Shown piece by piece: positions 7,147 to 30,396 of a stretch of 38,368 nt of DNA (position 1 is the stretch's first letter; each line of letters begins with the position of its first letter). Position numbers and translations under genes: made by a program. The DNA comes from Lachnospiraceae bacterium (GTDB lineage Bacteria; Bacillota; Clostridia; Lachnospirales; Anaerotignaceae), in the NCBI GenBank assembly GCA_028695945.1, contig JAQVIB010000001.1, positions 1-38,368 on the forward strand. Direction: 5' to 3'. The notes beneath the pieces are model-generated. The model had not been told where the DNA came from. It saw only the letters and a program-made list of their open reading frames with translations, and made no database searches.

Positions 7147-7154
7147 ATTCCTAG

Positions 7155-8021: not shown

Positions 8022-8189
8022 AACAACCTCTCCTCTCAACTAAATGGTGCTCACTTTAACTAATTTTTGTATTTATCCAATCATAGTACCTAAATACTGC
8101 ATTAATTGCTATACATGAAATCGTACATTTTGCTACGGAATATCCAAAGTATGTTATGAAAATTTGCTAATACCCAACGTATAAATATA

Positions 8190-8324: not shown

Positions 8325-11300
8325 TTATTTCGCAATTTCTTCACAGTAACGCATTAAAATTGACGCTGCCTGCCCACGGGTTGCACTTCCCTGTGGGTCA
8401 AGTTGGCTGTTGCCTGTGCCAGAAATTAACCCTGCATTTACTGCCCATGCAGTAGGCTCTCCTGCCCAACTAGAAAGTTTGCTGTAATTGGAAAATTCAC
8501 GCACTGCCATCCCACCTTTGGTAGTGTCGTATCCTTTAAATTTTGAATATCTGTATAAAATTGAAGCCAACTGTTCTCTGGTAATAACATCATTTGGTGC
8601 AAAAATACCGTTGCCATAACCGCCAACAATATTATTTTCTGCCGCCCATGCTACTGCCTCTGCATAGTATTCGCCGTCAGCAACGTCTTTAAAGCTTGCC
8701 TTAGCTTTTGCACTTGGCTGTCCTTCAAGCCTCCAAAGAATTGTAACAATCATTCCTCTAGTGGTGCTAAGGTTTGGTGCAAATTCTTTTTCACTAACTC
8801 CAGACATTAAGCCTTTTTCTGTAACATACTCTACTGCTTTTTTGAACCAATCCCCATCTTTTACATCACTAAAAGCAACGGCTTTACTGTTTTCTTCTTT
8901 CTTTTCTTCCTTAACTTCTTCTTTCACTTCGTCTTTTGTTTCAACAAAACTTGCAGTAATAGTGTGTGCCTTAGTAACGTCTTCAAAGGTATATTTGGTA
9001 ACCTTGCCAACGCTTACACCATCAACTAATACGTCTTTTACTTCATATCCTTTATTTGCTGTAATTGTAATAGTTTTGTCTTCATTCTTTGAAACAGAAA
9101 CTTCCCCATCTGGGCTTATTGTACCGCCTTTTTCGGCTTTAGCTGTAATTATGTAGTTTGTAGTGCTGGCACTTCCACTACCACTGGTAGTATCGTCACT
9201 GCTGTTTTTATGAACCGCAAAGGTTACCTTGCCTTTAACTCCACCATATATATATGGCATTAATGGTGTATCTATTACATCAACAGGTTCTGTAGCAGGG
9301 ACAGGCACAACGGTCCAACAAGTATAGCTATTCCCAAAATTATTATTCTTTACTGAACAAATTTTTGTTCCTCTTGGAAAGGCTGAAAGGGAAACCATTT
9401 CACTTTCCGTCTTGGTATTTGTTTTGTCTACCAAGCAGAATGGTGCCATTGTGGAATCTGTAATTAATTTACTTGTTTTGTCTACTGTCAGCTTGCCGCC
9501 CTCCGTATAAACACCATATGTACAGAAAACATTAAGGGTAGAACCGCCAGTTACCGTTACACCGCCTTCTGATGCAAAAACACCTCTTTCGCTGGAATGC
9601 ACTGTCATTGCTGCGCCATTGGAAACCTTAAACCCACGTGCTTTGGCTCCAATTCCACTTAAATTTGTAACATCCAAGGTAGTTCCTCTTCCGTTTACAA
9701 TTAGTTCTCCACCATTGCCATTAGCACTATCGCATAAAATATAACCGCCAGCTGTTACATTTACTCCGTCTTGAATAGTTAAGCTTCCTCCGTTTGTTGC
9801 ATTACAATTAATGCCATCACTCAGGTTTAGTGTTCCTTTTCCTCCAATGGTAAGGTTATATAAGTCAATTCCATCAAAATTTAAATATTGTGCCATTGCT
9901 TTTCCCTGTAAAAGAATTTTCACAGGCTCCTCAACATTTAAATTAATACCGCCCTTTCCTACCGCCAAGTTATCCAGTGTTAAGGTAAAGCCTCCCTCTG
10001 GATTTACTCTCCAATCATATCCGTCACCATAAGCTTCTGTTTCAGTCAAATTAAGGGCATCCATAGAGTACATTGGCTCTCCACTGTTAGTATAATGCTT
10101 TGGTTTATCTGCCGTTGGCACCATAACTGTTCCCTGACCCGTAGGTTTTATAATTGCTAAAGCCTCTCTCACTTCTTCATCCGTACTTTCTGTTGGTAAA
10201 ACTATGGTTCCATTGTTTATAAGTTTTCCGTTGTTTGTAACATAGTCACTTATATTCAACCCAGACATACCCTTTTCCAAATTCAACTCAAATCCACTTG
10301 GAATTGTTAATGTACTTCCCGAAATAATATTCAGCTTAACGTCAAAATTATGTGGTTGAAGTCTTCCAAATTCAAGAACTTTTATAGTCTTTCCCATTCC
10401 AGTATCATTGAAGGTTGCAAGTTGTGCAGTTCCGTAAGGTACAAGAGTATAACTCATCTGTGTTCCATTTTGTTCAAAAATACTTGCCCAGGCATTTAGT
10501 GTACCACCTGTTTTGTTTATAGGCGTACGTCCTACCAAAGAACCAAGTGGACTAAACCCAAAGGTTGCCTTTCCGCCAGTCATATTAAAATTGCCTAAGT
10601 ACATAAGCCTTCCGCCTGCCGCCAAGCTTTCATTTCCAGGTATTAAAAGTTCTCCACCCTGTATAATGGCATTTCCAAAAATTAAAAAGTCGTTGCTGGT
10701 TCTCAAATATCCACCCTTCATCTGGAAATCAACTGTCCTAATACCGAAGTTTTTTTTCAGTTCCTGGCCATTTTTTAACAGTTCCGCTTTCCATAACAAA
10801 TGTACCATCTGTAGAAATAGATGACGCTTGGTTTTCAGAAGTTCTAACATCCAATACTCCTTCACCGGAAAATGTAAGACTGTAATTCTTTGGTTCAATT
10901 GCAATTGCAGAACCGCCAATGTTTAATAGCTCACCCTGTTGAATTGCCATTGCGAAAGTATTGGAATTATAGGTATTCTCTAAAGTATTAAATCCCTTCA
11001 ATACTAATTTTATATCCCTCTTTGGCAAGGTAATTAGCGGTTTATCTTGGTTAGCCATCATATTCATATTTCCCATAGTTAAAGTTCCGTTGCTTGGTGA
11101 AAACAGCAGATAACCAATACCCGCTTTATAATAAGTATCTAACGTTGGGGTATTTACGTCTAAATCTAACCCTGTATTAGTTACATCTCCACCCCATGGA
11201 TAAACAATGCCTTCAGCAATGCCAATGATTGTATCATCAATCATAGTTTCGCCATAAGATACTATATTCATTTCTTTAATTTCTTCATTGGTAGTTCCCT

Positions 11301-11883
11301 TCGGGAATTTTAATGTACCGAAATTGTATAGAAAGTCGATTTTCTGTATTAAAGGTACGTCCTTGTTTCTGGCATCATCCCCAACAATAAGTGTTACCTC
11401 ACTATTAACAGACACTTTCATTAAACCTAAATCCATCGCTGAAGCGGTTTCACTTGATACTGAAAGAGTTCCTCCATTGTTTATATATTTGGCAATATAC
11501 AGACACTTATAATTGCCATCATCACACTTAATGGTGCTTTCCTTGGCTTTAAGTACACTTTGCCCCTCCAACATAAGGTGAACATCTGCATCGTTTTTCA
11601 AGGTTAGTGCAAAGGCACTGCTAGTGGTTATGTCTATGGTAGCGTTATTTAAGGTTAATGCACCATTACCATTCCACAATATGTAGCCATCACCTGCCTT
11701 GTAATAGGTGTTTTCACTAGGTGCTGTGTTAAGGTCTAGCCCTGTTGTGGTTACCTCACCACCAATAGTGTAATTATTACCTTGAATGTTTATGGTGTTT
11801 GCCGCCAGTGCTGTTTGTGGCAACATGCTAAGTAACATACAAACTGTTAGGATAATGCTTAAAAATCTTTTTCTCATTTTCAA
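8325..11883 (-). pseudogene. Large SLH-anchored cell-surface protein, split by a +1/-1 frameshift into ORFs 10738-11883 and 8325-10919
   Basis: The upstream ORF has a signal peptide (MKMRKRFLSIILTVCMLLSMLPQTALA) and repeated modules (TTTGLDL...TYYKAGDGYILW). The first ~50 aa of the downstream ORF read as out-of-frame noise. It then continues the same Gly/Asn/Thr-rich beta-rich repeats, an InlB-B-repeat-like module (GYEVKDVLVDGVSVG), a KEE linker and three C-terminal SLH domains (FSDVKDGDWFKKAVEYV..., FKDVADGEYYAEAVAWA..., WAGEPTAWAVNAGLISG...). The frames swap at the A6 (10771-10776) or A8 (10750-10757) tract. Confidence 0.8.
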
Positions 11884-12060
11884 TTTCTCCTTCTTCTTTT
11901 TTATTTAAAAACAATTGTATAACTCCTTTTTATTTATAGCTTTCATTTATTAACATATGTCCATATTCTAATTTCCTATATTTTACATCACGTATTCAAA
12001 AAACTAAATGGAAAATAATCTTTCCAAAAGGTACTCATCAAATAAAATTAATTTTTCATA

Positions 12061-12117
12061 GCACGAAAAAGTCAGTATTTTCAAGGTGCAAACCTAACTT
12101 GAAAATACTGACTTTTA
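12061..12117 (-). terminator. Strong intrinsic terminator ending the thiC transcript (bidirectional shape)
   Basis: A perfect 15-bp stem, GTCAGTATTTTCAAG (12071-12085) with CTTGAAAATACTGAC (12098-12112), extendable by A/T pairs. The loop is 12 nt and the minus strand continues into TTTTTC. Confidence 0.75.
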
Positions 12118-12133
12118 CACTGGTAACAACTAA

Positions 12134-12177
12134 GGAAACGCTGATTAATTTTTTGATAACATTAAATCAGCGTTTCC
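12134..12177 (-). terminator. Second hairpin directly after the thiC stop
   Basis: GGAAACGCTGATT (12134-12146) and AATCAGCGTTTCC (12165-12177) form a perfect 13-bp inverted repeat. There is no clear U-tract on the minus strand. Confidence 0.35.
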
Positions 12178-12233
12178 CTAAAGCAATCCTAAAATTTTTA
12201 TATACAATAAACTAAGTACACTTAATATTAAAA

Positions 12234-13535
12234 TTACAAAATGTCAATGTGTTCATCATTTAAAGCTTTGTTCATACTTCTAACAGCACAAAACTTTCCG
12301 CACATAGAACAAGTGTCATCAAATTCTGGTGTTCTTTCATCACGAATAGATTTTGCATATTCTGGGTCAATGGCACATTCCCATTGTCCTTCCCAGTCTA
12401 GCTTTCTTCTTGCATCTGCCATTTTATCATCAATGTCTCTTGCATGAGGTATTTTCTTTGCAATATCTGCCGCATGTGCCGCAATTTTACTTGCTATAAT
12501 CCCTTGCTTAACATCATTAATATTTGGTAAAGCAAGATGTTCTGCTGGCGTTACATAACACAAAAACGCAGCCCCTGCCATAGCTGCAACCGCACCGCCA
12601 ATTGCCGCCGTAATATGGTCATAGCCTGGTGCAATATCTGTTACTATAGGCCCAAGAACATAAAAAGGTGCACCCATACAAATTGTTTGCTGTATTTTCA
12701 TATTTGCTTCAACTTGGTCAAGTGGAACATGCCCAGGGCCTTCAACCATAACTTGAACATCTTTTGCCCAGGCTCTTTTCGTTAATTCACCTAAGCGAAC
12801 CAACTCATCTATTTGGCAAACATCACCAGCATCGGCAACACAACCAGGTCGGCAAGCGTCACCTAAGGAGATAGTAACATCATATTCTCTGCAAATTTCA
12901 AGAATTTCATCATAGTACTCGTAAAACGGATTTTCATTACCTGTCATGCACATCCAAGCAAACACAAGTGACCCACCTCTGGAAACAATGTTCATTTTTC
13001 TTTTATGTGTCTTTATTTGCTCAATTGTTTTTCGTGTTATTCCACAGTGTAAAGTTACAAAATCGACACCATCTTTTGCATGAAGGCGAATTACTTCTAT
13101 AAAATCTTTAGCCGTTAGGGTTGCTAAATCCCTTTGGTAATGTATTACAGAATCGTATACAGGCACAGTACCTATCATGGCAGGGCATGTGGAAGTAAGC
13201 TTTCTTCTAAAACCTGTTGTATCTCCGTGGGAAGATAAGTCCATAATAGCCTCTGCACCCATATTTACAGCTTCCATAACCTTTTTTATTTCAACATCAT
13301 AATCCTTGCAATCTCTGGAAACACCCAAGTTTACATTAATTTTTGTTCTAAGCATAGAACCAATTCCGTTCGGGTCTAAAGAGCTGTGATTTTTGTTTGC
13401 ACAAATTGCAATTTTTCCTTCTGCCACATGCTTTCTAATAAACTCAGGCTCTCTAAATTCCTTTTGTGCCACAATTTTCATTTGTGGAGTTATAATTCCT
13501 TTTTTTGCCGCTTCCATTTGAGTGTTGTAATTCAT
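12234..13535 (-). CDS. thiC: Phosphomethylpyrimidine synthase (radical SAM, thiamine pyrimidine moiety)
   Basis: 433-aa short-type ThiC with the C-terminal CSMCGKFC cluster motif and conserved blocks [10 protein letters not shown] and [19 protein letters not shown]. It is preceded by a TPP riboswitch. Confidence 0.95.
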
Positions 13536-14225: not shown

Positions 14226-14855
14226 ATGTATAAAAACAAAAAATTCATATATTTTCAAAGAGAAGCCGCAACAGGTTACGTACGTGTAATTCACACTGTA
14301 CCAGATGCTCCTAATGTTGACGTATATGCTAACGATGAAATAGTTGTAGATAATCTTGCCTTTGGAGACTACACCGATTATTTGCCTATACCTGAGGGTA
14401 CTTACGAAATAACTCTCTATGTTGCTGGCACTAAAGATTCACCTGTTTTAACAGATTCATTAACAGTTAGTGCAAATTCTATGCTAACTGTAGCCGCAGT
14501 TGGAAACCTTAGCGATATAGAATACCTTGCCATTTCCGATGTTGATGAAGATGAAGTGCCAGGAAAGTCTATGGTACGATTTCTACATCTTTCACCTAAT
14601 GCTCCCGCAGTAGATATTACATTACCAGATGGAAGAGTTATTTTTGGTGATACTGCATTTTTAGAGATTACTCCTTATGCTGACGTTATGCCTATGGACT
14701 ATACTTTGCAAGTTAGAGTTGCAGGAACTGACAATGTAGTTCTTACAGTACCAAATGTTCCTTTGGAGGAAGATAAATACTATACAGTTTATGCAATTGG
14801 TTTGGTTGGCGAATACCCTGAACTTCAGGCATTATTAATTGAAGATGGAGAATAG
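14226..14855 (+). CDS. DUF4397 domain protein (two tandem repeats), no obvious signal peptide
   Basis: There are two internal repeats: VRVIHTVPDAPNVDVYANDEIVVDNLAFGDYTDYLPIPEGTYEITL and VRFLHLSPNAPAVDITLPDGRVIFGDTAFLEITPYADVMPMDYTLQV. RBS AGAGAGGT is present. It is the only long plus-strand gene in the first 34 kb. Confidence 0.75.
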   Translation: MYKNKKFIYFQREAATGYVRVIHTVPDAPNVDVYANDEIVVDNLAFGDYTDYLPIPEGTYEITLYVAGTKDSPVLTDSLTVSANSMLTVAAVGNLSDIEYLAISDVDEDEVPGKSMVRFLHLSPNAPAVDITLPDGRVIFGDTAFLEITPYADVMPMDYTLQVRVAGTDNVVLTVPNVPLEEDKYYTVYAIGLVGEYPELQALLIEDGE

Positions 14856-14935
14856 TTTTAACAAAAATATGAATAGTGGTAATTAAATTTCATTTTATTT
14901 TACTTCTTTATCTAAAAATTATTTTTGTACAACAA

Positions 14936-14968
14936 AAACCCTTGTAAACATTGAATTTACAAGGGTTT
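14936..14968. terminator. Bidirectional-looking intrinsic terminator after the DUF4397 gene
   Basis: Perfect 13-bp stem AAACCCTTGTAAA (14936-14948) with TTTACAAGGGTTT (14956-14968), a 7-nt loop, and an A-run before and a T-run at the end. Confidence 0.6.
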
Positions 14969-15187
14969 TAACCATCCCATATTAAAATCCGAACCAAAGA
15001 CCTTCGGGTTATGAGTATTGCTAATGGTGTTCATGGGTGTAAAATGGGTTCATATCGTGATAAAAAAGACTTTTATTATAGACTTTTTATCCGCAAATTC
15101 ACATTACGTATTATTATTTTCAATAGGTTTCGGTTGGCTTGGGGTAGAAATGGGGTAATACAATGGTACACATATAAATTTGTAAAC

Positions 15188-16138
15188 CTACGTTTTCCTT
15201 TGCAAAAATCCATTTTTATCAGAAATAAACATCGCAACCATACCTACCATAACTCCAAGCCATAACGTGGAAAACCTTGAAAACAATGTAATGCTTACAC
15301 TTAATGTATTTGAAAATCCGCACAACTTCAACAAACCAAGTATACTTCCATCAGTTACCCCAATTCCTCCAGGGAGCATAGATGCCCCTCCTACTAATGC
15401 AGAAAATCCAATTATAAAAAAAGCATTAAATATACTTAGATATTCTCCAAAGGCTCTTGCCGTAATAAATATTACCAAAGCTTCACAGCCCCAAGCAAAA
15501 ACACCCGTTACTATTCCTACTATAAGACTTTTAGTTTCAAATAAAACATACGAACTTTCATAAAAATTTTTAAATTTACAAATATGCTTTTTTAAGAACT
15601 TTATTTTGGAAGCTTTTTCTATTAAAAAATAACATGCCTTCTTATTGTGTACTATCATAACTAATAATAATAATATTAATAATACTGTAGCAATAGATAA
15701 AACTCCTTTTTTAAAAGAAAAAAGACCAATCACAGATAATATCAGCATCCCAAAAGCATCTGAAACTCGTTCGGCTACTAAAAGCGGTAATGACCTACTC
15801 ATAGGTATGTTATATTTAACCTTAATCATATAAGGTCGTACAATTTCACCCACCTTTGCCGGAGTTATCGACATACATAAGCCTGATAAAAAAATTATAA
15901 TCTTATCCCTCATCGACATGTTAAATTCCATAAAATTAAAGTAATAATTATACTTCAAAAATCTTATAAAAAAATTGAAAGGCATTATACATAAAATAAC
16001 ACCAAGATATTTAAAATCAAAATGTTTTAAAGCTATTACTATCTGTTTTACATCTCCATATAACAATATAACAACTATAATTGCAAATCCGGCAAGGAGA
16101 GAGAAAATCAAATTTTTTTTAATGTTTTCAAACTGCAC
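15188..16138 (-). CDS. Polytopic membrane protein, LPG-synthase-TM / flippase-like family (UPF0104-like); last gene of the glycan operon
   Basis: 316 aa with about 8 hydrophobic helices. The N-terminus has the KKNLIFSLLAGFAIIVVILLYGD...FDFKYL pattern typical of this family. GTG start. Confidence 0.55.
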   Translation of the reverse strand: MQFENIKKNLIFSLLAGFAIIVVILLYGDVKQIVIALKHFDFKYLGVILCIMPFNFFIRFLKYNYYFNFMEFNMSMRDKIIIFLSGLCMSITPAKVGEIVRPYMIKVKYNIPMSRSLPLLVAERVSDAFGMLILSVIGLFSFKKGVLSIATVLLILLLLVMIVHNKKACYFLIEKASKIKFLKKHICKFKNFYESSYVLFETKSLIVGIVTGVFAWGCEALVIFITARAFGEYLSIFNAFFIIGFSALVGGASMLPGGIGVTDGSILGLLKLCGFSNTLSVSITLFSRFSTLWLGVMVGMVAMFISDKNGFLQRKT

Positions 16139-16151
16139 ATATATCCCTACT

Positions 16152-17117
16152 TTATTTATTATAATTATTAAATGCCTCCACTATCATATCCTTATCAGAA
16201 TATTGGGGCTCCCAATCAAGTTCTTCTTCTGTCTTTGATATATCAAGAATATAATCTTCATCCGCAATCATATATTGCTCTTTATACATAATTTCTAGAC
16301 CCACAATAGACATAATCTTCAATACAAACTTTACCAATGGCCCACAAGTAGGAAAAACTATTGTTTTAGAGCCTACACTTTTTGCAAGATTCATTAACAA
16401 ATCCTTTGTTGAAGGGGCATTTTTTGATCCTAAATTATATTCACTATTCGGAAGCCCCTTATCTATAGCACACATTATTGCAGAAACACAATCAAAAACA
16501 GAAATCATCTGGTAGCAATTTTTCCCACTTCCAATGGTAGGTACAGGCAAATTATGCTTTATCAACCAAAAAAGCTTTTTAAGAATTCCAAGTCTTCCCG
16601 GTCCTATAATCATTCTAGGTCTAAAAATTGTAATGTTAAATTCTTTTTTTCTATATTCTTTGCAGATATCTTCCGCTGCTTTTTTGCTTTGTCCATAAAA
16701 TCCAAATGGCTTTTGTGGATGATTTGTATCAACAGGAAGATATTGCGGCCTTCCATACGTCATATCAGTAGTAAACATACAAAAATTCTTGCAGTCACAA
16801 TTCTCCATATATTCTAATATATTTCTTGTTCCTGCCGTATTTGTATCAAAAAAATATTCTTTTCTGCCTTTTCTAGGTACCTTATTATGATATTGATTTG
16901 CCGCAAGATTAACCACAATATCATCTGACTTAAGAACTAATTTTTCAAAATCAGATTTTTTTGTCATATCAAGTGTTACATATGTTACATTATCTAATTT
17001 TTTACTATTATCGCATTTAACAATATCACACACGATAACTTCTTTTTCTAATTTAATTAATGCATCTACTAAATTTGAACCTACAAATCCGTTTCCACCA
17101 AACACTATTATCGCCAT
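16152..17117 (-). CDS. NAD(P)-dependent extended SDR epimerase/dehydratase/reductase (the track ORF extends to 17174; ATG at 17117 is preferred)
   Basis: MAIIVFGGNGFVGSNLV Rossmann motif and a YGQSK catalytic YxxxK. RBS AGGAG lies 8 nt upstream of the ATG at 17117, which removes the overlap with the upstream gene. Confidence 0.8.
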   Translation of the reverse strand: MAIIVFGGNGFVGSNLVDALIKLEKEVIVCDIVKCDNSKKLDNVTYVTLDMTKKSDFEKLVLKSDDIVVNLAANQYHNKVPRKGRKEYFFDTNTAGTRNILEYMENCDCKNFCMFTTDMTYGRPQYLPVDTNHPQKPFGFYGQSKKAAEDICKEYRKKEFNITIFRPRMIIGPGRLGILKKLFWLIKHNLPVPTIGSGKNCYQMISVFDCVSAIMCAIDKGLPNSEYNLGSKNAPSTKDLLMNLAKSVGSKTIVFPTCGPLVKFVLKIMSIVGLEIMYKEQYMIADEDYILDISKTEEELDWEPQYSDKDMIVEAFNNYNK

Positions 17118-17121
17118 TTTT

Positions 17122-17487
17122 TTAACTCCTCGATATAAGAATAACCCCAATACATATAACAAAAATGCCTGCAACTCTAATAGGTGTTATATTTTCAGCA
17201 AAAAAATAATATCCTACAACTGCTGATATAACATACCCAATACTTAGAAATGGGTATGCATAGCTTACATCAACCTTTGAAAGAACAATCATCCATATAA
17301 CTATACTAACACCGTAACACAGCATACTAATCCATAGAAACCAATTTGTTATCATGCTTGGTACAGCACTTATAAGTGAAGATAGCCCTCCCGAGATTTC
17401 TCCGACACCCATCATACCTTTTTTCATAGCTAACTGTGCAGAACAGTTAAGCAAAACACTAATAATAATTAAAATTATATTTCCCAT
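17122..17487 (-). CDS. Small 4-TM SMR/EamA-type protein, ArnE/ArnF-like candidate lipid-linked-sugar flippase
   Basis: 121 aa with four hydrophobic helices, the N-terminal LLNCSAQLAMKKG motif and YAYPFLSIGYV. RBS AGGAGA is present. Confidence 0.6.
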   Translation of the reverse strand: MGNIILIIISVLLNCSAQLAMKKGMMGVGEISGGLSSLISAVPSMITNWFLWISMLCYGVSIVIWMIVLSKVDVSYAYPFLSIGYVISAVVGYYFFAENITPIRVAGIFVICIGVILISRS

Positions 17488-17497
17488 TTAATTTCTC

Positions 17498-18061
17498 CTA
17501 TTGTCTTTCCCACACGCTAATATTGTTTTTTCTTATAACAAACGCCTTATCCGCTATTACAGCCAAGGGCATATCCGACTTAGAATCAGAATAAAATTCC
17601 TCTATTTCGTTTTTTTCAAATAGCATCCTGAATCTACTAACCTTTTCATCTCCATGGCAATTTTCACTATAAAAGTGACCATTTTTTTTATCAACGTCTG
17701 TTGCTATAAGAATTTTTATTTTATTCTTTTCACACATTGGTTTAAGCAAAAATATTGGTGATGCGGATATGACCACATCATTATCTTTTTTTTGTTTTAT
17801 ATACCAGTCCTTAAGCTTCCACTTTTTAAATTCCCAAAAAGCTATTACTTCATTATCTATATCTTTTATTCCATTTAAAAAGTAAAAAAAATGTTCTTTC
17901 ATTCTTCTTTTATTAATAATTTTTAATTTATACATAACAATTCCCATTACTTGAATAGGTAAGAATCTAATTAATAAAAAATTTTTCTCTAAAGAGAATA
18001 AGTAAAAATCTACTGTGCTATCCCCATCATATATTGTATTATCAAAATCATAAACATTCAT
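17498..18061 (-). CDS. HAD-IB superfamily phosphatase (the track start is GTG at 18073; ATG at 18061 with RBS GAGGA is preferred)
   Basis: The N-terminal MNVYDFDNTIYDGDST carries the DxDxT nucleophile motif. The C-terminal YSDSKSDMPL carries motif IV-like acidic residues. Confidence 0.7.
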   Translation of the reverse strand: MNVYDFDNTIYDGDSTVDFYLFSLEKNFLLIRFLPIQVMGIVMYKLKIINKRRMKEHFFYFLNGIKDIDNEVIAFWEFKKWKLKDWYIKQKKDNDVVISASPIFLLKPMCEKNKIKILIATDVDKKNGHFYSENCHGDEKVSRFRMLFEKNEIEEFYSDSKSDMPLAVIADKAFVIRKNNISVWERQ

Positions 18062-18073
18062 AGTCATCCTCAC

Positions 18074-18961
18074 TTAAAATACATTGAATAATGTAGGAAA
18101 ATATATAATTCCAATCAACATTATAATATATATACCCGCCATTACTACAAGCATTTTGTCCCCTAATATTACCTCAACAGGGTCACCAAAAGTACCTTTT
18201 TCTATATTTAAGCTATACTTCATAGATAAAAATATTATTAATGGTACTGTTAATACAAGCTTATCCGTATGATATTTAATTATTATATCAGAATCAACAG
18301 CCCATAATGAATAAAATACAATTGCTAATGACATTGACATATACATGTTTTTATCCAGAAAACTATGATTATAATGTTTCAGCACATTCCTTGTGCTAGT
18401 ATTTTCTCCCAACCTTACTATTTCATTGCGCCTCTTTCCAAAACCCATATAAAATGAAACACTCATTACAGTAAGATATACCCATTGTGACACGCCTGAA
18501 TTTATAATTGTTGCACCATATAAAACACGTAACAAAAAGCCAGATACAAGAATTGCGATGTCTATTATTGGATAATTCTTCAACCCACAACTGTAAAATA
18601 CATTTATAACTAAATATATTAATAGTAAACTAAGGCTTTTAAAACTCCTATTTGCAAATATATCTATACCAACCGCAACAATGAAAATAATTATTGAAAT
18701 ATAGATAGCTTTTTTTATACTCACTCGACCAGAAGCTAAAGGCCTATCTTTTTTCTTCTCATGCTGCCTATCTGCATCTATATCTCTGATATCATTAATT
18801 ATGTACACTACTGAAGATATAAGCGAAAATGATACAAATCCCAATAATACTCGTATAAATAAATTTACATTAAACAAATTCATTGTAAAAAACAAAGAAA
18901 CACAAACCAACCCATTTTTTATATAATGTTTTGGTCTTAAAAGTTTAATAATATCTTTCAT
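18074..18961 (-). CDS. UbiA-superfamily polyprenyl-phosphate phosphoribosyltransferase-like protein (DPPR synthase-like)
   Basis: 295 aa with about 9 TM helices. Asp-rich motif YIINDIRDIDADRQHEKKKDRPLASGRVS and second motif GFGKRRNEI, which matches my recollection of the Rv3806c-type family. It lies within a glycan locus. Confidence 0.7.
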   Translation of the reverse strand: MKDIIKLLRPKHYIKNGLVCVSLFFTMNLFNVNLFIRVLLGFVSFSLISSVVYIINDIRDIDADRQHEKKKDRPLASGRVSIKKAIYISIIIFIVAVGIDIFANRSFKSLSLLLIYLVINVFYSCGLKNYPIIDIAILVSGFLLRVLYGATIINSGVSQWVYLTVMSVSFYMGFGKRRNEIVRLGENTSTRNVLKHYNHSFLDKNMYMSMSLAIVFYSLWAVDSDIIIKYHTDKLVLTVPLIIFLSMKYSLNIEKGTFGDPVEVILGDKMLVVMAGIYIIMLIGIIYFPTLFNVF

Positions 18962-18995
18962 CTTTTCTCCTACATTCTATAAAATATACATTATG

Positions 18996-19589
18996 TTATT
19001 CTTCTGGTGGATATAAAAATCTGTTGTCAATAGGAAATACCTTCGCAACAAGTCGGAACGAATCAACAAGAAAACAACCCTTTTCAGTAATCTGATACTT
19101 GTCACCATCCTGCCTTATAGAACCGGTAATAAGTTGCTCATCAAAACGTCTTTGCATTGCTTCATAATCATCCATATATACATCAAGAAAATTCTGTGTT
19201 ATTTCTTCCTCAGTAAAAGCCGTATCCGGATTTTGTGCCATATGCGATAATATATACACAGATATTGAACGGTCAATCGCAACTGTTACTAATGATAAAA
19301 ACGCCATATTTAAGCAAAGAGCAACACACATCGCCAATGCAATATCTCTAACCGTAATTTTGATGAAATTGTTGTATTTAGCAAACAATACAACTAAAAC
19401 AAACATAACTATTCCCACAACTATTAAAAGCTTTGTTGCCCTATAAAAATAAACATTTAAACTCGCAAACAACGGTGTTCTAAAAGAAAGAGCATATAAT
19501 GCTGTACATATTATAAATACAACAAGATAAAATACGCAATACTTTAATCCTTCTTTAACTAAGTTTATGATACTTTTTTTATTTCCCAT
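18996..19589 (-). CDS. Hypothetical membrane protein with 4 TM helices and a soluble C-terminal domain (track start 19628; ATG at 19589 with AAGGAG RBS is preferred)
   Basis: The hydrophobic N-terminal half is followed by AQNPDTAFTEEEITQNFLDVYMDDYEAMQRRFDEQLITGSIRQDGDKYQITEKG. I do not recognise a family. Confidence 0.5.
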   Translation of the reverse strand: MGNKKSIINLVKEGLKYCVFYLVVFIICTALYALSFRTPLFASLNVYFYRATKLLIVVGIVMFVLVVLFAKYNNFIKITVRDIALAMCVALCLNMAFLSLVTVAIDRSISVYILSHMAQNPDTAFTEEEITQNFLDVYMDDYEAMQRRFDEQLITGSIRQDGDKYQITEKGCFLVDSFRLVAKVFPIDNRFLYPPEE

Positions 19590-19666
19590 AAGTTTCTCCT
19601 TATACATTAAAAATTTTTTATTAATCATAACTTACATTACTTTTTTCTTTTACCCTACAATTAATT

Positions 19667-21697
19667 TCAATTCTTTATATTCTTTATATTCTTATCTTTT
19701 AATGCCCTAGTCATAAATATACAACTTAAACCAATAAACGAAATATTTAACGGGAAGGCTGCTGACAGATACAAAGATGTTATCGCATAATATGCACTTA
19801 TATGTGTGTAAGAGACTCCAGCTATAAGTACAAGCATGCTTCCTGCCAAACCAGTGAGAATCAACCATTCATCTACCATCTTTGATTTTTTATATTTTAT
19901 AAGTGTATATATTATATAGATAGTTAATAGAACATATCCCATATAACCAACTATAAAAGCTATAAATCCCAACTTATGATACGGAGTAGTTATTGTATTT
20001 ATTAATTTTATCTTATTCTGATTAGTACTTGCAATTGTATCTTCTGCTTTTGTAATTTTCATATTATCAATATTACAAATCGTATCTCCTGTATTAAATC
20101 CATAAATATTATTACTTTCATCAACTCCAATCTCTTGAATAGTCTTTCCGTCTACTTGAAATACCAGCTTGTACTCCTCAACCTCATCTATATATAAATT
20201 TTCTGAAAATCTACACTTTTGGGCATTTTCGAGCCTTAGCCCTAAGCTCTTACTAAAATAACTAGATATATCTGGGCTATCCACTTTTTTAAATTCTTTA
20301 ATAAAATCATCGTTTTTATACAATAAAACCTTAGTTTCTCTATTCCCATCATTGCATAAAAACCAACCTGAAATATCAATCCGCGTTTTACTTGGATAAA
20401 TTGCAAAGCTTCTGGATATATTCTCAAATATCCTTATTTTATTCTCATCACCCACACTTTGAATTAACTGTGTATCACCTACATCATTTTTAGCAATAAA
20501 CATATATGCCTGCCCCATTGCCGGAAAAATTTCACTTATATATTTGTATTTGAAGGGACTCATTAATGCAGATGGCATTGAAACCCCCTCTCTTTTTTCT
20601 AATTTACCATTTTCCAACGCTGTTTCTATTTCATCAGCTGCATCTCTATAAAACTCATCAGCCTTTATAGGATCTGCATAATAACCATTTGCATAAACAA
20701 CATCTCTCAGACACCAAAAAAACCATCCATCCTTAATCTGACCATCTAACTCTCCATCTGTTGCATCCCAACCGCCACCATAGTTTGAATCTAACGTTTC
20801 TTTTAAAGATGCAAACGTTGGGCTCACTTCATATATCCTGTCAATTGTGCTTTTAGGAACAGACGTTCTATATATATCTTCTGCTGGTTGAATTCTATAT
20901 ATGTCTTTTATTAATCTTGGAAAATTGCCCTGATTAAGCTCGTTATAAATGTAAATACCATATTTGTTATAATTTATGACAGATATCGATGCAGAAAATA
21001 AAATAAATATTAATAATGGAATAATTGAGATACAACTTCTTTGTATAACTAATTTAATATTAAAAACATTATTATCCAATTTATATGTAATTATTGTAAT
21101 ACTAATTACCGCTAATACTAATGGCATAACCCATATTCCATCTTCTCTTGTATGCCACAAAGTTGCAAGTGCAAAGCCTGCCCCTATTGCCCATTTTATA
21201 AAATCTTTTGTCTTACCATTTCTGCTAAAGTACATCCCAAATAAACAACCTGAAAGAAATAATATCTGTGCTGGTGTTATATTACACCTATACACCCTTA
21301 AAAATGTATTTGTGGCTGTTGTTATTGGTGCAAAAAATAGAACTGTAAATATAAATGCTTTTAAATAGTCATTTTTTAGTACTGTTTTAATACCAAATAT
21401 AAATACAATACATGAAAGTGCGTAAAAAATAGTTTGAAGAATTGGTAATGGTATATTTAGTAAATAACCCGTTGACAAAAAGAGTGGAAAGAACACACCC
21501 TTTATAAATGTCATTTGAGAATACATCCCAAGCCAGTTCCCCTCCAAAATATTCTTTGCCATATCCACCATAAGAAAATCGTCATGTGCAGCAAATGCCA
21601 CAGAATATATTGGTAATCCGCCAACAATAATCAATTTAAAAATTATTAGCGCAATAATGTAAAAATATAGACGTTTTCTATTAAAAGAATCATTCAT
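19667..21697 (-). CDS. Large polytopic protein, candidate GT-C-fold (ArnT/PMT/YfhO-like) extracytoplasmic glycosyltransferase (track start 21793; ATG at 21697 with GGAGG RBS is preferred)
   Basis: About 10 N-terminal TM helices with an acidic first loop (VAFAAHDDFLMVD), a ~300-aa hydrophilic domain and 3 C-terminal TM helices. The call rests on this topology and on genomic context only. Confidence 0.5.
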   Translation of the reverse strand: MNDSFNRKRLYFYIIALIIFKLIIVGGLPIYSVAFAAHDDFLMVDMAKNILEGNWLGMYSQMTFIKGVFFPLFLSTGYLLNIPLPILQTIFYALSCIVFIFGIKTVLKNDYLKAFIFTVLFFAPITTATNTFLRVYRCNITPAQILFLSGCLFGMYFSRNGKTKDFIKWAIGAGFALATLWHTREDGIWVMPLVLAVISITIITYKLDNNVFNIKLVIQRSCISIIPLLIFILFSASISVINYNKYGIYIYNELNQGNFPRLIKDIYRIQPAEDIYRTSVPKSTIDRIYEVSPTFASLKETLDSNYGGGWDATDGELDGQIKDGWFFWCLRDVVYANGYYADPIKADEFYRDAADEIETALENGKLEKREGVSMPSALMSPFKYKYISEIFPAMGQAYMFIAKNDVGDTQLIQSVGDENKIRIFENISRSFAIYPSKTRIDISGWFLCNDGNRETKVLLYKNDDFIKEFKKVDSPDISSYFSKSLGLRLENAQKCRFSENLYIDEVEEYKLVFQVDGKTIQEIGVDESNNIYGFNTGDTICNIDNMKITKAEDTIASTNQNKIKLINTITTPYHKLGFIAFIVGYMGYVLLTIYIIYTLIKYKKSKMVDEWLILTGLAGSMLVLIAGVSYTHISAYYAITSLYLSAAFPLNISFIGLSCIFMTRALKDKNIKNIKN

Positions 21698-21768
21698 TGT
21701 TTGCCTCCAAGAAAAGTAAAAACCATTAATAATTATATTGAAGTTTTTGTCCTTCCGTAAGTAAAAAT

Positions 21769-22692
21769 TTACCCTTTGTCCTCCATTATCCATTCAATTA
21801 TATGTCTTATTCCCTTTTTTAAATCCGTTTTAGGTACCCAGAATAACTCTTTAAAAGAACTTTCTACATTAAGCAATGAGCTTTCAACGTCACACTTCCT
21901 CTTTTCTTTATACACTATATCTTTAAAATTTTTCCCAGATGTATCCTGAATTATATCTATTACTTCATTTAGGGAATGAACACACCCTGAACCAATATTG
22001 AAAATATGCTCTTTTCCATTATAGTCAAGTACCTTTTTAAATGCAGTAATTAAGTCATCCATATATATATAATCTCTAACACTTGTGCCATTACCCAAAA
22101 CCATAATAGGCTCATCAGCTATTAATCTGTGTATAAATATAGGAATAACTCCCTGTGGTTTATTTATATCTTGTCCAACACCATAAGGATTTGTTATTCT
22201 CATTATTTTATAATTCAAACCATAAAACTTTCCATAAAACTCTAAATAGCCCTCAATAACCTTTTTCTGTACACCATAGCTGCACTGAGGAGTAAGTTTA
22301 TCATTTACAAAATTTTCTTTTTCACCTGTCTCTCCATAAACCGTGCCTCCTGATGAGGCAAATATTATTTCATTTACACCACATTTAACCATATCTTCTA
22401 AAAGTCTAATTGTAGGAATTACATTTTTACTTATTTCATCAATAATAATACTTGTATCATCCGTAGGAGTTGTGGTACTTATAAGATGAATTACCTTATC
22501 AACTCCCTGAAGTATTGGTTTAAAATCGCAGATTGTAGAAAACTCTCTGTTTATAAAAGTAAAATTTTTAATATCTTCTAACTCTTTTGGTAAATGCCTA
22601 CCAAGAGCAATTATTTTATATTCTTGACAAATACTTTTACATAAAGGCTTACCCATAAATCCTGTTGCACCTAAAATTAAGCATGTTTTCAT
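21769..22692 (-). CDS. NAD-dependent epimerase/dehydratase (UDP-sugar 4-epimerase-like extended SDR)
   Basis: MKTCLILGATGFMGKPL Rossmann motif, SSGGTVYG, and YGVQK catalytic YxxxK. Confidence 0.8.
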   Translation of the reverse strand: MKTCLILGATGFMGKPLCKSICQEYKIIALGRHLPKELEDIKNFTFINREFSTICDFKPILQGVDKVIHLISTTTPTDDTSIIIDEISKNVIPTIRLLEDMVKCGVNEIIFASSGGTVYGETGEKENFVNDKLTPQCSYGVQKKVIEGYLEFYGKFYGLNYKIMRITNPYGVGQDINKPQGVIPIFIHRLIADEPIMVLGNGTSVRDYIYMDDLITAFKKVLDYNGKEHIFNIGSGCVHSLNEVIDIIQDTSGKNFKDIVYKEKRKCDVESSLLNVESSFKELFWVPKTDLKKGIRHIIEWIMEDKG

Positions 22693-22714
22693 TTATTACT
22701 CCTTGTTTTTATCC

Positions 22715-25700
22715 TTAAACCCCTTTAGCAAACAACTTTACTTTGTCTATCATCTCAGCATCAGAAATCTTAGATGATAAAATACCACAATATGCACAAG
22801 CCTGTTTTAATAAAGAATCCCTTATGCTACTTTTTAAATTTTCGTCTATTGCACTATATTCTTTTATTACATAAGTCAATAAATTTTCCTTTGCATAATT
22901 TTTTAAATGACTAATTACTGCTGTATCAATGCCTAGATTTTCCTGTATTTTTACAATACTGTTATAAAAATCATTAATTATTTTATCATCATACTCTTTC
23001 ATTAATAAATCAGACACATTTTTTTTATTAATATATTCATCCAATAAAGTAACCAGCTCTTCACAATATTCTGTTACATTGCTTTTGCTAATGTTTTCCT
23101 TAATATCTTCAAAAATATAGTTAAGTGCAATAAATACTGTATTAATCTGGCTAAAAATGTTCTTATCCTGCTCGCAATTATTAGTCTTACCTATTATCTT
23201 GTCCATAGCAAAACCCTCAGCAATTGAACGCTTTAAATAATATCCTGCATTTCTATTATGCCCATGTACTATAGTCACAGAAGACATAATTTTCACTTTA
23301 TTATCATCTTTTATTAGTCTAAGCCCTAAATCCAAATCCTCTGCAAAGCTAAATCTATATTTATACTTACGCCATATATCTGCCTTTATAGCTGTCGATA
23401 CATCATTTAATGAAGCATTCTTTCTCTGTACAAGTGGCGTCATATCTCTTGAATAAAATCCAATTCTATCAACTTGTCCATCTAAAACAAAATTTGAATG
23501 AGTTTTTGAAGCAACACGATAATATAAATCAGTTCCGTCTGGGCATGTTTCCATACAGCTTACGGCCGCTATACCTTCATTCATAATTGGTGCTATGATT
23601 TTTGCAACCCAATATTCATCTGTTGGCATGGCGTCTTGAGTCATAAAAATAAGTATGTCTCCGCTTGCATTTTCTCCTCCTAAATTTCTAGCAAAAGAAT
23701 GTGAAAATTGTTTCTGTGTTATATGAATTAATTTGTTCGACTTTTTAAACACTTCCGCACTATCAATATTTTCACTCTCGGAATCAACAAGTATTACCTC
23801 AACAGCCTTTATTCCTTTCTGTCTATGAAGTAAATCTACTGTGAATTCAAAATCCTTCTGAGGATTATATACAGGAAAAATAACAGAAACTACAACATCA
23901 AAATGTAGATTATCTGTTTTGTGAAGCAATTTATCAATTGTATCATTTACATTAACCATAAATGCATTATATGAAAACATTTGTTCATACGCATATCTTG
24001 CGTTATCTCGCATAATTGCCATTTCGTTATTATTATAATTTTCAGCTATTTTTTCCATACAGTTTACAAGTTCTGTAACCGAATTTTCTCTATAAATTAA
24101 TCCTGCATTAAATTTACTAATAATACTTGCTGAACCTGTATTTTCAGAACATATAATTGACTTTGAGAGTGCCATTGCCTCTGTTACTACCACTGGCATA
24201 GGGTCATCTTTCGACGTACAAACTAAACAATCAATCTGAGCATACAATTTAAAAAGATCATCTCTTGAAACTTGTTCAATATGCTTTGAATTGTTTAGGT
24301 ATTTACCTAGAACCTTTTCAACACTTTTATTTATATTTTCATCAAAAGGCTTGCCTATAAATAAAAAGTAACAAGATTTTCTTATCCTATTATCCATTGT
24401 TTCAATTGCCCTAACAAAAATATCTTGAGCTTTACGCTCTTCAAAACTTCCAATAATCGCAAAAACAAATTTGTCCCTCAAATTCACTATATCATTCTTA
24501 TTTTTTGTATAATCATTTAATATATCTGGCAAATAGTATAATAATGTATCCGCTTTGTAGTTAGGAAAAAACCTTTTTAAAACATGTTTAGCATAGTTCC
24601 CCCCGCACACTACGTTTACATTTTGAGGAAGTTCATTAGGCATAACAGCTAAAAATCCACCTTTTTCATACGAATATATAGCTTCATGTATCCACCATAA
24701 TACAGGAATATCCATATTTGCAAGCTTATTAATTACGTAATACGTTACTATCGTGCAGGCAACAATAAAGCTAATTTTTTGTTGAATCTCTTCCAAAAAT
24801 GTTGAACTAGCTAAGGTGTCAGCTATAATCAAAGGTATTCCTTCTTTATTTATCTCTTCTTTAAGCAGTCCATCAACCGGAGACAATATAATAGGCAAAT
24901 AGCCAATATTTTTTAGTATTCTTGCAAAATAGAATAGAACAATTGGTGCTCCTGTAATAGTTAATTCATGGCTTACCAAAATAACTGTCTTACTTTTATT
25001 ATTATGTGCAAAATCAATTTTCGTAGCCCCGAAAACCTCATAATTATACTTTGAGCATAAATCTAAAATAGATATATCTTCATCATCTGTTTCAGTTAAA
25101 CTTTCAGTAATGCTGGTATATAAATTAATTTCGTTTACCTTTTTCTCAAATAAGTATTTTTTAGTTTTTTTGAAAGTTATTTCAGGACCATTATGAATTA
25201 TACTACCAACGCCCTTTTTAATCAATCGTGTATATTTTGTCCGATTAAATAATTCTTTAATTGTATCGGCGCTTACTCTCAACGGGTAAGTTAATCTCCA
25301 ATGAGTAGAATTCTTAATTGCTACATAAGCAATTTCTGCATTTTGAAGCTTTGCAAATAGTTCTTCATTAATCATCATTTTATTTGCATATTCTAGCTTA
25401 AAACGTTCAATTTCATTGTTTAATTTATCAATCACTAAATCGTTCTGTTTAATACTCAAAGTTAACTCATCTATAACAACATTGTTATTCTCTATTTCCT
25501 CTTTTTGACCCTGTAATTCTTTATCTTTATTTTCTATTTTCTCTTTTTGATTCTGTAATTCTTTATCTTTATTCTCTATTTCCTCTTTTTGATTCCGTAA
25601 TTCTTTATCTTTATTCTCTATTTCCTCTTTTTGATTCCGTAATTCTTTATCTTTATTCTCTATTTCCTCTTTTTGATTTATTATTTCTTCTGACTGTTTT

Positions 25701-28124: not shown

Positions 28125-28140
28125 TCTTTCCCTCTCTAAT

Positions 28141-29538: not shown

Positions 29539-30383
29539 CAGCCATCAATCTCTTTTAGAAACCTTTTCAAAGCATCCTTCCAATGAGCTAGCCTTTGAAA
29601 TTTTGCCTCATCCAAAATTTCTTTATTTAGTCTTGAATTTAATGGCCTTACAGTCTTCGTAGGATATTCCGTGGTTTTTATAAAATTAACCTTTGTTTTA
29701 TAATTTGATAATCTAAATATCTCCTCAGCAAACTCTGCCCACGAACAAAACCCTTCATTTGTTGCGTGATATATTCCGTATTTATCTGTCATCACCATAT
29801 CACACAGCAATTTAGCCAAATCTGCTGTATAGGTTGGTGAACCAACCTGGTCACATACAACACTTATTTCACTGCGTTCTTTTCCTAGTCTAAGCATAGT
29901 CTTAATAAAATTATTTCCATTTTTCCCAAATACCCATGAAATTCTAACAATAAAATACTTGTCTAAAATCTTCTTAACAGTATTTTCTCCTTCAAGCTTC
30001 GTTTTTCCGTATACACCTAAAGGTCCTGTTTCATCATTCACATCGTAAGCCTTATTGCCGGTACCTGAGAAAACATAATCAGTACTAATATAAATCATTT
30101 TAGCATCGACAGCCTCGCAAGCTTTTGCAATATTTTCTGTTCCATATACATTTACCATATGGCACAACCCGGGTTCATCCTCTGCTTTATCTACCGCAGT
30201 GTATGCTGCACAATGAATAACCGCCTTCGGCTTATAACTTGATATATATTCCATAACGTCATTTTCTTTTGTTATATCAAATTCCCTTCTTCCAACCCCA
30301 GTACACTCAATATTTCTGCTTTTAAGAACCTTAACAACATCATATCCAAGTTGTCCATTTACACCTGTAACAAGTATTCTCAT
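29538..30383 (-). CDS. rfbD: dTDP-4-dehydrorhamnose reductase (the track ORF extends to a TTG at 30419)
   Basis: MRILVTGVNGQLGYDV..., CAAYTAVDKAE, YGKTKLEGE, SPTYTADLA. Confidence 0.9.
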   Translation of the reverse strand: MRILVTGVNGQLGYDVVKVLKSRNIECTGVGRREFDITKENDVMEYISSYKPKAVIHCAAYTAVDKAEDEPGLCHMVNVYGTENIAKACEAVDAKMIYISTDYVFSGTGNKAYDVNDETGPLGVYGKTKLEGENTVKKILDKYFIVRISWVFGKNGNNFIKTMLRLGKERSEISVVCDQVGSPTYTADLAKLLCDMVMTDKYGIYHATNEGFCSWAEFAEEIFRLSNYKTKVNFIKTTEYPTKTVRPLNSRLNKEILDEAKFQRLAHWKDALKRFLKEIDG

Positions 30384-30396
30384 AAAAACATCCTTT

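Follow-up and report, generated by a model that had tools for sequence, protein, structure and literature searches.

What do the last genes of a clostridial cell-wall glycan operon add to the polymer made by the genes before them? We examined this in a Lachnospiraceae bacterium (assembly GCA_028695945.1, contig JAQVIB010000001.1, positions 1 to 38,368; this stretch of 38,368 nt is called the window, and coordinates without a locus label refer to it). A sequence-only reading of the window had proposed that the distal genes load a pentose from phosphoribosyl pyrophosphate (PRPP) onto polyprenyl phosphate, dephosphorylate, epimerise and flip it, and hand it to an acceptor by way of an enzyme resembling glycosyltransferases of the C fold (GT-C). 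On bioinformatic evidence this core holds. We conclude that the genes form a cassette which probably adds a single pentofuranose side chain, at the outer face of the membrane, to the finished rhamnose-containing wall polymer exported by an ATP-binding cassette (ABC) transporter. As far as its predicted proteins tell, the locus is a clostridial form of the three-component pentofuranose system of Kelly et al. (2024, PNAS, PMC11127046).

In that system, from Citrobacter youngae O1 and O2, side chains of alpha-ribofuranose (Ribf) or alpha-xylofuranose (Xylf) were shown experimentally to be added after polymerisation. ORF15 is a phosphoribose-phosphatase domain of the haloacid dehalogenase (HAD) type fused to a UbiA-fold polyprenyl-phosphoribose synthase (PPPRS), ORF14 a transporter of the EmrE/ArnE kind with four transmembrane (TM) helices, and ORF12 a GT-C enzyme of 11 TM helices followed by a carbohydrate-binding module (CBM) at the C-terminus, the founder of family GT136. 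ORF13 is found in O2 only; this single GalE-type short-chain dehydrogenase/reductase (SDR) converts the donor to its C3 epimer, Xylf, and O1 adds Ribf with no epimerase. Arabinofuranose (Araf) systems carry homologues of DprE1 and DprE2 in place of ORF13. The host operon depends on an ABC transporter; its Wzt has a carbohydrate-binding domain, and its terminator is a methyltransferase containing a coiled coil. The HAD enzyme may be a separate protein in other systems, the transporters vary, most of the GT-C genes are annotated as hypothetical, and Gram-positive candidates such as Bacillus sp. NP157 are listed, with a candidate in E. coli named as well (Kelly et al., 2024).

A seven-gene cassette recurs in unrelated contexts

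All six genes of the module proposed earlier were present as minus-strand open reading frames (ORFs) when the window was checked. Their number did not stand, as seven genes are conserved and the 210-amino-acid (aa) gene at 18996-19628 had been overlooked, as had a second SDR gene upstream of the cassette. In the order of the operon, the seven genes are:

19667-21697, minus strand: 676-aa GT-C-like polytopic membrane protein, characterised with AlphaFold2 (AF2) and Foldseek; reading frame open back to 21793
18996-19628, minus strand: 210-aa small membrane protein, between the 676-aa and UbiA genes; an alternative start at 19589 gives 197 aa
18074-18961, minus strand: 295-aa UbiA-fold protein, assigned from NF008978, PDB entry 8j8j and motifs
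17498-18061, minus strand: HAD-IB phosphatase (PF12710, 3.6e-16; TIGR01488 at cut-off); a GTG start at 18073 is possible
17122-17487, minus strand: 121-aa protein with four TM helices of the small multidrug resistance (SMR)/EamA type (EamA and Multi_Drug_Res at Pfam cut-offs)
16152-17117, minus strand: 321-aa extended SDR, GalE-type (PF01370 Epimerase, 2e-37)
15188-16138, minus strand: 316-aa LPG_synthase_TM (MprF-flippase-like) protein (PF03706, 1.3e-37); last gene of the operon

From 34638 down to 15188 the minus strand holds one co-directional, tightly packed run of genes with a G+C content of 27-31%, against 35-39% in the flanks. The gaps from the UbiA gene through the LPG_synthase_TM gene are 0-13 nt, and those flanking the 676-aa and 210-aa genes 34-71 nt. 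A site scan of 14700-23000 found no excess of promoter-like sites over shuffled sequence and a modest excess of terminator-like sites (5 versus 2.4 expected). The operon structure is therefore argued from gene spacing. Just past the operon end, on the plus strand and convergent with it, a DUF4397 protein is encoded (14226-14855, E=4e-45), which marks the downstream boundary of the cassette.

The same seven genes in the same fixed order were found in two other metagenome contexts of clostridial type, L003/L004 and L005 (the loci compared here carry L numbers). L003 and L004, two metagenome contigs, hold the protein most closely related to the 676-aa protein (39% identity) in the order 669-aa protein, 193-aa protein, UbiA, HAD, EamA, SDR, LPG_synthase_TM, next to a eut microcompartment operon and with no glycan genes nearby. 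In L005 the seven genes stand behind a methyltransferase gene and a polymerase-type gene with glycosyltransferase family 2 and 4 (GT2/GT4) domains, as in the window operon, and are accompanied by another large membrane protein and by an orthologue of the window's upstream SDR. Identity to the window proteins across these loci was 64-74% for the SDR, 71-72% for the SMR protein, 56-58% for UbiA, 41-43% for the HAD protein, 33-37% for the 210-aa protein, 28-39% for the 676-aa protein and 29-34% for the LPG_synthase_TM protein. Thus, the donor genes are conserved and the presumed acceptor-specific transferase has diverged, which is the pattern expected of a decoration cassette.

Smaller versions were seen in Clostridium beijerinckii (L006), where a 633-aa membrane protein, UbiA and a HAD-GtrA fusion end a Wzm/Wzt operon, and on an exopolysaccharide plasmid of Lactococcus cremoris (L007), with a 462-aa membrane protein, UbiA, HAD-IB and GtrA. 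The phage collection gave a single distant match (30% identity, an unannotated 6.6-kb record), and no phage-borne versions were found in IMG/VR. We conclude that the seven genes from 21697 to 15188 are a portable cassette that recurs in unrelated contexts.

Donor synthesis starts from PRPP

The 295-aa UbiA-fold protein scored 214.2 bits against NCBIfam model NF008978, "decaprenyl-phosphate phosphoribosyltransferase", and passed its equivalog cut-off of 207. A PDB sequence search matched it to the Rv3806c structure 8j8j over residues 3-281 with E=2.7e-35; the next-best UbiA-fold structure, chlorophyll synthase, reached only E=2e-6. The catalytic motif NDxxDxxxD is intact (N56-D57-x2-D60-x3-D64), and a second motif, GKRRNE, lies at residues 175-180. 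The protein had been likened from its motifs to the mycobacterial decaprenyl-phosphate phosphoribosyltransferase, and the profile cut-off and the 8j8j match agree with that call; profile scores and PDB match alike place it with these synthases and not with MenA, UbiA or heme O synthases. A role as quinone, heme O or chlorophyll prenyltransferase was rejected, the MenA, UbiA, CyoE/CtaB and ChlG models scoring 16-40 bits against cut-offs of 102-494. By family, the protein is a polyprenyl-phosphate 5-phosphoribosyltransferase (PPPRS/DPPRS), and this is its predicted activity. Homologues with 49-59% identity are very common in Clostridia, among them Oscillibacter, Lawsonibacter, Pseudoflavonifractor and C. 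beijerinckii, and several sources already annotate such proteins as decaprenyl-phosphate phosphoribosyltransferase.

The next gene encodes a HAD-IB protein whose DxDxT nucleophile motif reads DFDNT (residues 5-9); the motif and both HAD models (PF12710, TIGR01488) bear out what had been read by eye. In all six Firmicute loci examined, a HAD gene comes directly after UbiA. C. beijerinckii has it as a fusion with GtrA, and in Rhizobium, Vibrio and L034 an equivalent HAD domain is joined to UbiA in one protein. Aligned with hhalign, the stand-alone protein and the fused HAD domain matched over 152 columns with a probability of 97.2% and E=4e-11. Because of this conserved adjacency, the fusions and the profile similarity to the HAD domain of the fused enzymes, we propose that the protein is the phosphoribose 5-phosphatase.

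The flippase-epimerase pair and the identity of the sugar

The best NCBIfam matches of the 121-aa SMR protein were ArnF (2.9e-16) and ArnE (1.6e-10), both under cut-off, and it is 38% identical to the EamA gene product encoded next to a Vibrio HAD-UbiA fusion. The likeness to the ArnE/ArnF flippase subunits noted earlier is thus retained, with EamA/SMR as the Pfam assignment, and we propose the protein as the flippase of the polyprenyl-phosphate-pentofuranose.

The 321-aa SDR carries the motifs GGNGFVG (residues 7-13) and YGQSK (residues 141-145) and has no predicted signal peptide. No other gene of the cassette is as conserved. When one genome per species was scanned with this SDR, 22 loci were obtained with 46-65% identity, in Lachnospiraceae, Eubacteriales, Anaerovibrio, Pectinatus, gut Alphaproteobacteria, several Helicobacter, Bacteroidales, Synergistaceae and Akkermansia, that is, in at least seven bacterial groups. 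In all 22 the gene immediately upstream of the SDR is an SMR homologue, UbiA is mostly found just upstream of the SMR gene, and in most loci examined a large protein with 8-13 TM helices adjoins the UbiA/SMR/SDR genes; the one beside the unit in Akkermansia passes the Pfam GtrII cut-off. The SDR is strictly linked to the gene of a lipid-sugar flippase and would therefore act on the lipid-linked pentose, and we propose it as an epimerase of polyprenyl-phosphate-ribofuranose. The DNA of the SMR and SDR genes had no blastn match in all complete E. coli genomes.

In Tannerella forsythia ATCC 43037, an oral pathogen that has been well studied (L031, 8460-10183), UbiA and HAD genes are followed by only a 61-residue SDR remnant, and an SMR gene was not detected. 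Its copy of the donor unit may have decayed or been rearranged.

The donor of the window cassette could also remain polyprenyl-phosphate-ribofuranose, with the SDR serving another step, for example a nucleotide sugar of the backbone. Minimal systems without an SDR do occur (C. beijerinckii L006, Lactococcus plasmid L007), and C. youngae O1 is a published case of Ribf addition. Yet in the cassettes the SDR is the best conserved of all genes, and its position next to the flippase gene in every one of the 22 loci holds across phyla and beside unrelated backbones. We regard this alternative as very improbable.

The sequence-only reading had suggested that the SDR could carry out the C2 chemistry of DprE1 and DprE2. 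Its assignment as an extended SDR was correct; the C2 step leading to Araf is disfavoured. With two DprE1-like and two DprE2-like queries, tblastn found no homologue in the window, and Pfam found neither FAD_binding_4 nor adh_short in the cassette. DprE1/DprE2 homologues were likewise absent from the 22 SDR loci, and an SDR of the 321-aa type was not found in two loci of the DprE1/E2 type, Rhizobium L008 and metagenome L034. In this sample the two epimerase types are mutually exclusive. One could still picture the same pathway with the SDR as a C2 epimerase, a single GalE-type enzyme replacing DprE1 and DprE2 and giving polyprenyl-phosphate-arabinofuranose. An NAD-bound enzyme of this type could in principle oxidise and re-reduce C2, and the module otherwise parallels the synthesis of decaprenyl-phosphate-arabinose (DPA). 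Against this stand the mutual exclusion and the published record, in which the characterised or structure-linked Araf systems all carry DprE1/E2 and the single-SDR system gives Xylf (PMC11127046); we consider an Araf product unlikely.

Because of this exclusion and the published association of ORF13 with Xylf and of DprE1/E2 with Araf, Xylf is our best guess and appears more likely than Araf as the side-chain sugar. Of the earlier "ribofuranose or arabinofuranose", the lipid-linked pentofuranose stands, Araf is probably not the sugar, and Xylf is preferred by analogy.

A GT-C-like protein of a large family without a Pfam model

The 676-aa protein had no sequence match in Pfam, NCBIfam or the PDB, and PDB searches with the single protein and with a family profile returned nothing meaningful. 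A word-index search gave 48 relatives, all annotated as hypothetical; an exhaustive profile search gave 4,828 clusters (50% identity) at E<=1e-3, of which 2,945 at E<=1e-30. The protein is thus part of a large family that has no Pfam model. With relaxed Pfam thresholds, 41 family members yielded only stray matches to EpsG (E=0.0012, one member) and GtrII (0.09, two members).

The AF2 model (pLDDT 91.2, pTM 0.85) shows TM1, then a short outside segment with D39-D40, about 7-8 N-terminal TM helices in all, an outside domain of ~300 residues with a beta-sandwich, and finally three C-terminal TM helices. The outside domain is absent from relatives of 555-595 aa. The motif AAHDD occupies residues 36-40, and D39 and D40 are at least 90% conserved in 41 homologues. 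In Foldseek searches of the PDB, a probability of 1.00 was reached only by GT-C enzymes, namely Pmt1/2 (E=6.6e-4), ArnT (1.3e-3) and Pmt4, followed by PglB at 0.96; matches of the AcrB type stayed below 0.3. The GT-C layout had been suggested from the acidic first loop and the large outside domain. The loop motif is present, and the high-probability structural matches, PglB included, are exclusively GT-C. We propose that the protein is an extracytoplasmic pentofuranosyltransferase; its fold and context are observed, its activity and acceptor predicted. It is unlikely to belong to GT136, the family of ORF12, from whose published description its architecture sets it apart.

The genomic contexts of the family vary. 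In loci of the Acetobacterium type a member sits between an enzyme with GT2 and GT2_TM_C domains and two small EamA genes, and another member adjoins a GT2/GT2_TM_C gene. Some members are extended at the N-terminus, and none of these carries the 210-aa partner as a fusion; in nine of them examined with Pfam, GtrA, Acyl_transf_3 or Sulfatase was found in three and nothing in six. In Clostridium butyricum and L035, members directly follow ABC operons of the rhamnan type.

A different view of the 676-aa protein is that it acts as a hydrolase or a polymer ligase, or serves in export or as a scaffold, the true transferase being encoded elsewhere. Consistent with this, it belongs to no sequence family, its TM-scores to GT-C structures are low, and some of its relatives have no donor synthase nearby. 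On the other side, the cassette offers no other polytopic candidate, the structural matches of high probability are solely GT-C, the acidic pair after TM1 is conserved, and the family includes GtrA fusions and GT2/flippase triads. In our judgement the chance of a function other than glycosyl transfer is slight.

Two side observations concern these operons. In L035 (7989-11700) tandem paralogues of 669 and 563 aa come right after the rhamnan-type operon, which suggests two successive decorations. Proteins of ~700 aa with DUF7657/DUF7654 (L001 19623-21710, L002 5559-7724, L037 3647-5767) are found repeatedly alongside relatives of the 676-aa protein in the wall-glycan loci of clostridia and Acetobacterium, and are another uncharacterised family tied to these operons.

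Two further membrane proteins accompany the transferase

The 210-aa protein matches no Pfam or NCBIfam model and its family is tiny, with 8 clusters found. In all six contexts observed, a member lies directly beside a large polytopic protein, and a PPPRS is present in five of them. The six include a Treponema GT2/GtrA system and a two-copy locus of the DprE1/E2 type, in both of which the neighbouring large proteins belong to other sequence families. The AF2 model shows three long helices (~3 TM) and a C-terminal domain (pLDDT 84-91) that Foldseek matched to winged-helix domains. From the model and its neighbours we propose an accessory subunit of the transferase.

The two-copy locus, L034, has its copies in the stretches 2970-5944 and 10001-12750, each directly upstream of a membrane protein of 712 or 769 aa. 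The Treponema locus, L033 (9586-12616), has one family member, with a UDP-galactopyranose-mutase fragment just upstream. These observations hint that the family is tied to furanose-transferring enzymes generally.

The last protein of the operon had been called an LPG-synthase-TM protein, and besides PF03706 it passes TIGR00374, "flippase-like domain" (76.7 bits, cut-off 43.2), as this call would have it. It is conserved in L003, L004, L005 and Pectinatus L029 and was not found in the other related loci, of which L010 and L011 break off so close behind the SDR that they are uninformative. In Firmicutes, flippase domains of the MprF type transport modified lipids and glycolipids, and a role as second flippase or as membrane platform or anchor for the SDR is therefore plausible.

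The presumed acceptor is the polymer of the proximal operon

Upstream of the cassette, the gene run contains:

22715-34638, minus strand: backbone operon with RmlA, RmlC, RmlB, two GT2 enzymes, RmlD, Wzm, Wzt with Wzt_C, and a 1399-aa protein (from Pfam and translations)
21769-22692, minus strand: second extended SDR, 307 aa (PF01370, 1.5e-39), between the polymerase and the GT-C-like gene

The 1399-aa protein has methyltransferase, GT4 and GT2 domains by Pfam, and between the first two a KEEIENKDKEL repeat stretch which, judged by eye, looks like a coiled coil. By gene content this is the standard layout for an ABC-transporter-dependent, chain-terminated, rhamnose-containing polymer, and the Rml, GT2, Wzm and Wzt/Wzt_C genes bear out the ABC-exported rhamnose polymer that had been claimed. 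We presume this polymer to be the acceptor of the cassette sugar.

The 307-aa SDR has GalE/RmlB-like NCBIfam matches below cut-off. Its orthologue (55% identity) holds the same position in L005 and none was found in L003/L004, and it is outside the core cassette. It would be either a nucleotide-sugar epimerase or a second lipid-sugar epimerase; as an orthologue occurs only in L005, it may simply supply a backbone sugar.

The lipid-linked pentose might instead be made for lipoteichoic acid, for an S-layer or other surface protein, or for another glycan. The cassettes beside the eut operon favour this, P. aeruginosa modifies its pilin by the same chemistry (PMC11127046), and the window encodes large surface proteins of the S-layer homology (SLH) type. 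In the window and in L005, however, the cassette is co-directional with and tightly spaced at the end of an ABC glycan operon, and in C. butyricum and L035 the genes right after the rhamnan-type operons encode relatives of the 676-aa protein. We leave a small share of the probability to such an acceptor and prefer the wall polymer.

The large surface proteins lie at 8325-11883 on the minus strand, where two secreted proteins of 864 and 381 aa are encoded, the larger ending in SLH-like repeats (by eye). They are possible alternative acceptors or partners in anchoring the wall polymer.

Proposed pathway and points against it

In the pathway that we propose, the UbiA enzyme would first move ribofuranose-5-phosphate from PRPP to polyprenyl phosphate, probably undecaprenyl phosphate, and the HAD-IB enzyme would then strip the 5-phosphate. 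The GalE-type SDR would epimerise the lipid-linked ribofuranose in the cytoplasm, most likely to the C3 epimer Xylf and less likely to Araf. The SMR protein, probably as an antiparallel dimer, would flip the donor; the LPG_synthase_TM protein may assist this or move another lipid. Outside, the 676-aa enzyme would transfer the sugar to the polymer by means of the Asp-Asp pair after TM1, aided by its 210-aa partner.

Several findings weigh against this scheme. The L003/L004 cassettes, which stand apart from any glycan operon, indicate that the neighbouring polymer is not necessarily the acceptor. The sequence of the SDR does not reveal its regiochemistry, and the comparison with ORF13 was made with the published description only. 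No sequence profile places the 676-aa family securely with any known GT-C family, and with TM-scores of 0.27-0.36 to GT-C structures the support is at the level of the fold only. BLASTP detected no similarity between the stand-alone HAD protein and the HAD domains of fused HAD-UbiA proteins. The 210-aa and LPG_synthase_TM genes are conserved yet have no assigned step, and two candidate flippases are one more than the scheme needs.

Comparison with known systems

By type and description, the C. youngae system is matched in its PPPRS using PRPP, HAD enzyme, 4-TM transporter and single GalE-type SDR, and in a polytopic transferase that carries an additional beta-rich domain on the outside. The position is also alike: the decoration genes come last, at the distal end of an ABC operon whose Wzt has a carbohydrate-binding domain and whose terminator is a methyltransferase. 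The two differ in that the HAD enzyme is separate in the window, whereas that of C. youngae is fused to the synthase, and in that the outside domain of the window transferase precedes three C-terminal TM helices, as in protein O-mannosyltransferases (PMT), whereas ORF12 has 11 TM helices and then the CBM. Moreover, the window transferase family has no Pfam model, the 210-aa winged-helix partner and the LPG_synthase_TM protein are additional, and the host is a Gram-positive clostridial bacterium with a backbone polymer of L-rhamnose (Rml).

The DPA pathway of mycobacteria and corynebacteria shares the Rv3806c homologue (2.7e-35) and the route from PRPP through a lipid-phosphate-pentose to GT-C transfer outside. 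It uses the PAP2 phosphatase Rv3807c where the window has a HAD enzyme, the FAD oxidase DprE1 and the reductase DprE2 where the window has a single SDR, and the GtrA-type Rv3789 where the window has an SMR protein. No transferase of the Emb/Aft type is present in the cassette, and the mycobacterial pathway polymerises an arabinan whereas the window cassette would add a side chain. The sequence-only reading had described the phosphatase and epimerase as non-orthologous to the known set, which is right in relation to mycobacteria; it does not hold as a novelty, since the Citrobacter set has the same enzyme types. Its view that the enzymology is limited to actinobacteria, Pseudomonas and rhizobia has become outdated with the 2024 report on C. 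youngae.

The Araf systems of Pseudomonas pilin and of rhizobia resemble the window in having a PPPRS, large hypothetical polytopic proteins and a small flippase, and L034, of the DprE1/E2 type, also shares the 210-aa partner family in its two copies. They differ in that L008, on a Rhizobium phaseoli plasmid, and L034 have FAD_binding_4 and adh_short proteins and no GalE-type SDR, and in both the PPPRS is fused to HAD; the L008 flippase is GtrA, not SMR.

The decoration of O antigens, teichoic acids and Gram-positive rhamnans with hexoses by Gtr and CsbB-YfhO systems follows the same principle of a lipid-phosphate-sugar made inside, flipped and transferred outside by a GT-C enzyme, and relatives of the 676-aa protein sit in triads of one GT2 and two EamA genes in Acetobacterium. 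The donor synthase of those systems is a GT2 enzyme using UDP-hexose, whereas the window has a UbiA-fold enzyme using PRPP, followed by dephosphorylation and epimerisation. Finally, in the ArnT and ArnE-ArnF system, which transfers L-Ara4N from undecaprenyl phosphate to lipid A, ArnF and ArnE are the best NCBIfam matches of the SMR protein and ArnT ranks high among the structural matches of the 676-aa model, but the former are below cut-off, and the sugar, its biosynthesis and the acceptor differ.

Wider implications

Rhamnose-rich wall polysaccharides and their side chains determine phage receptors, serotypes and immune recognition in Gram-positive bacteria. We found nothing specific in the literature on pentofuranose or Xylf decoration in Clostridia or Lachnospiraceae. 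New here are the clostridial host, the HAD enzyme split from the synthase, an unannotated and differently built GT-C-like transferase and the two added membrane proteins. As the basic mechanism is already known, the value is incremental and not conceptual. If our reading is right, the pentofuranose paradigm of 2024 reaches Clostridia, the UbiA/(HAD)/SMR/SDR unit is a genomic marker across many gut phyla, and three unannotated families (GT-C-like, winged-helix partner and MprF-like) are flagged as candidate parts of extracytoplasmic glycosylation machinery.

A more far-reaching joint reading, possible but rather doubtful, is that the 676-aa protein founds a large unannotated PMT-like GT-C family, with the 210-aa and MprF-like proteins as subunits and with a pan-bacterial UbiA/SMR/SDR donor unit. 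If true, the winged-helix partner and the MprF-type protein would be subunits outside any current three-component model. The donor unit, with its 46-65% identity between Clostridia and Helicobacter, Akkermansia and Bacteroidales, would have spread horizontally as a module that supplies polyprenyl-phosphate-xylofuranose or another rare pentofuranose, and pentofuranose decoration would be a common, overlooked surface trait among gut anaerobes. If the second SDR (21769-22692) took part, the sugar might even be lyxofuranose, which has never been observed.

Other features of the window

A nitrogenase cluster was recognised by eye on the minus strand at 621-8039, with nifH at 4351-5169, nifD at 1985-3592, nifK at 621-1985, two PII-like genes within it at 3607-4332 and a molybdate-type ABC transporter beside the nitrogenase genes at 5412-8039; its presence points to a diazotrophic anaerobe. 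A thiamine pyrophosphate (TPP) riboswitch (RF00059, 13620-13722, minus strand; 62.5 bits against an Rfam gathering threshold of 54.3) precedes a thiC-like gene (12234-13535). A 145-aa ORF upstream of the glycan operon (35404-35841) is bracketed by an inverted repeat of 16 nt (94% complementary, 35398-35873), and a serine recombinase gene is nearby at 37405-37956; the repeat may mark an invertible element or have arisen by chance, the DNA being AT-rich.

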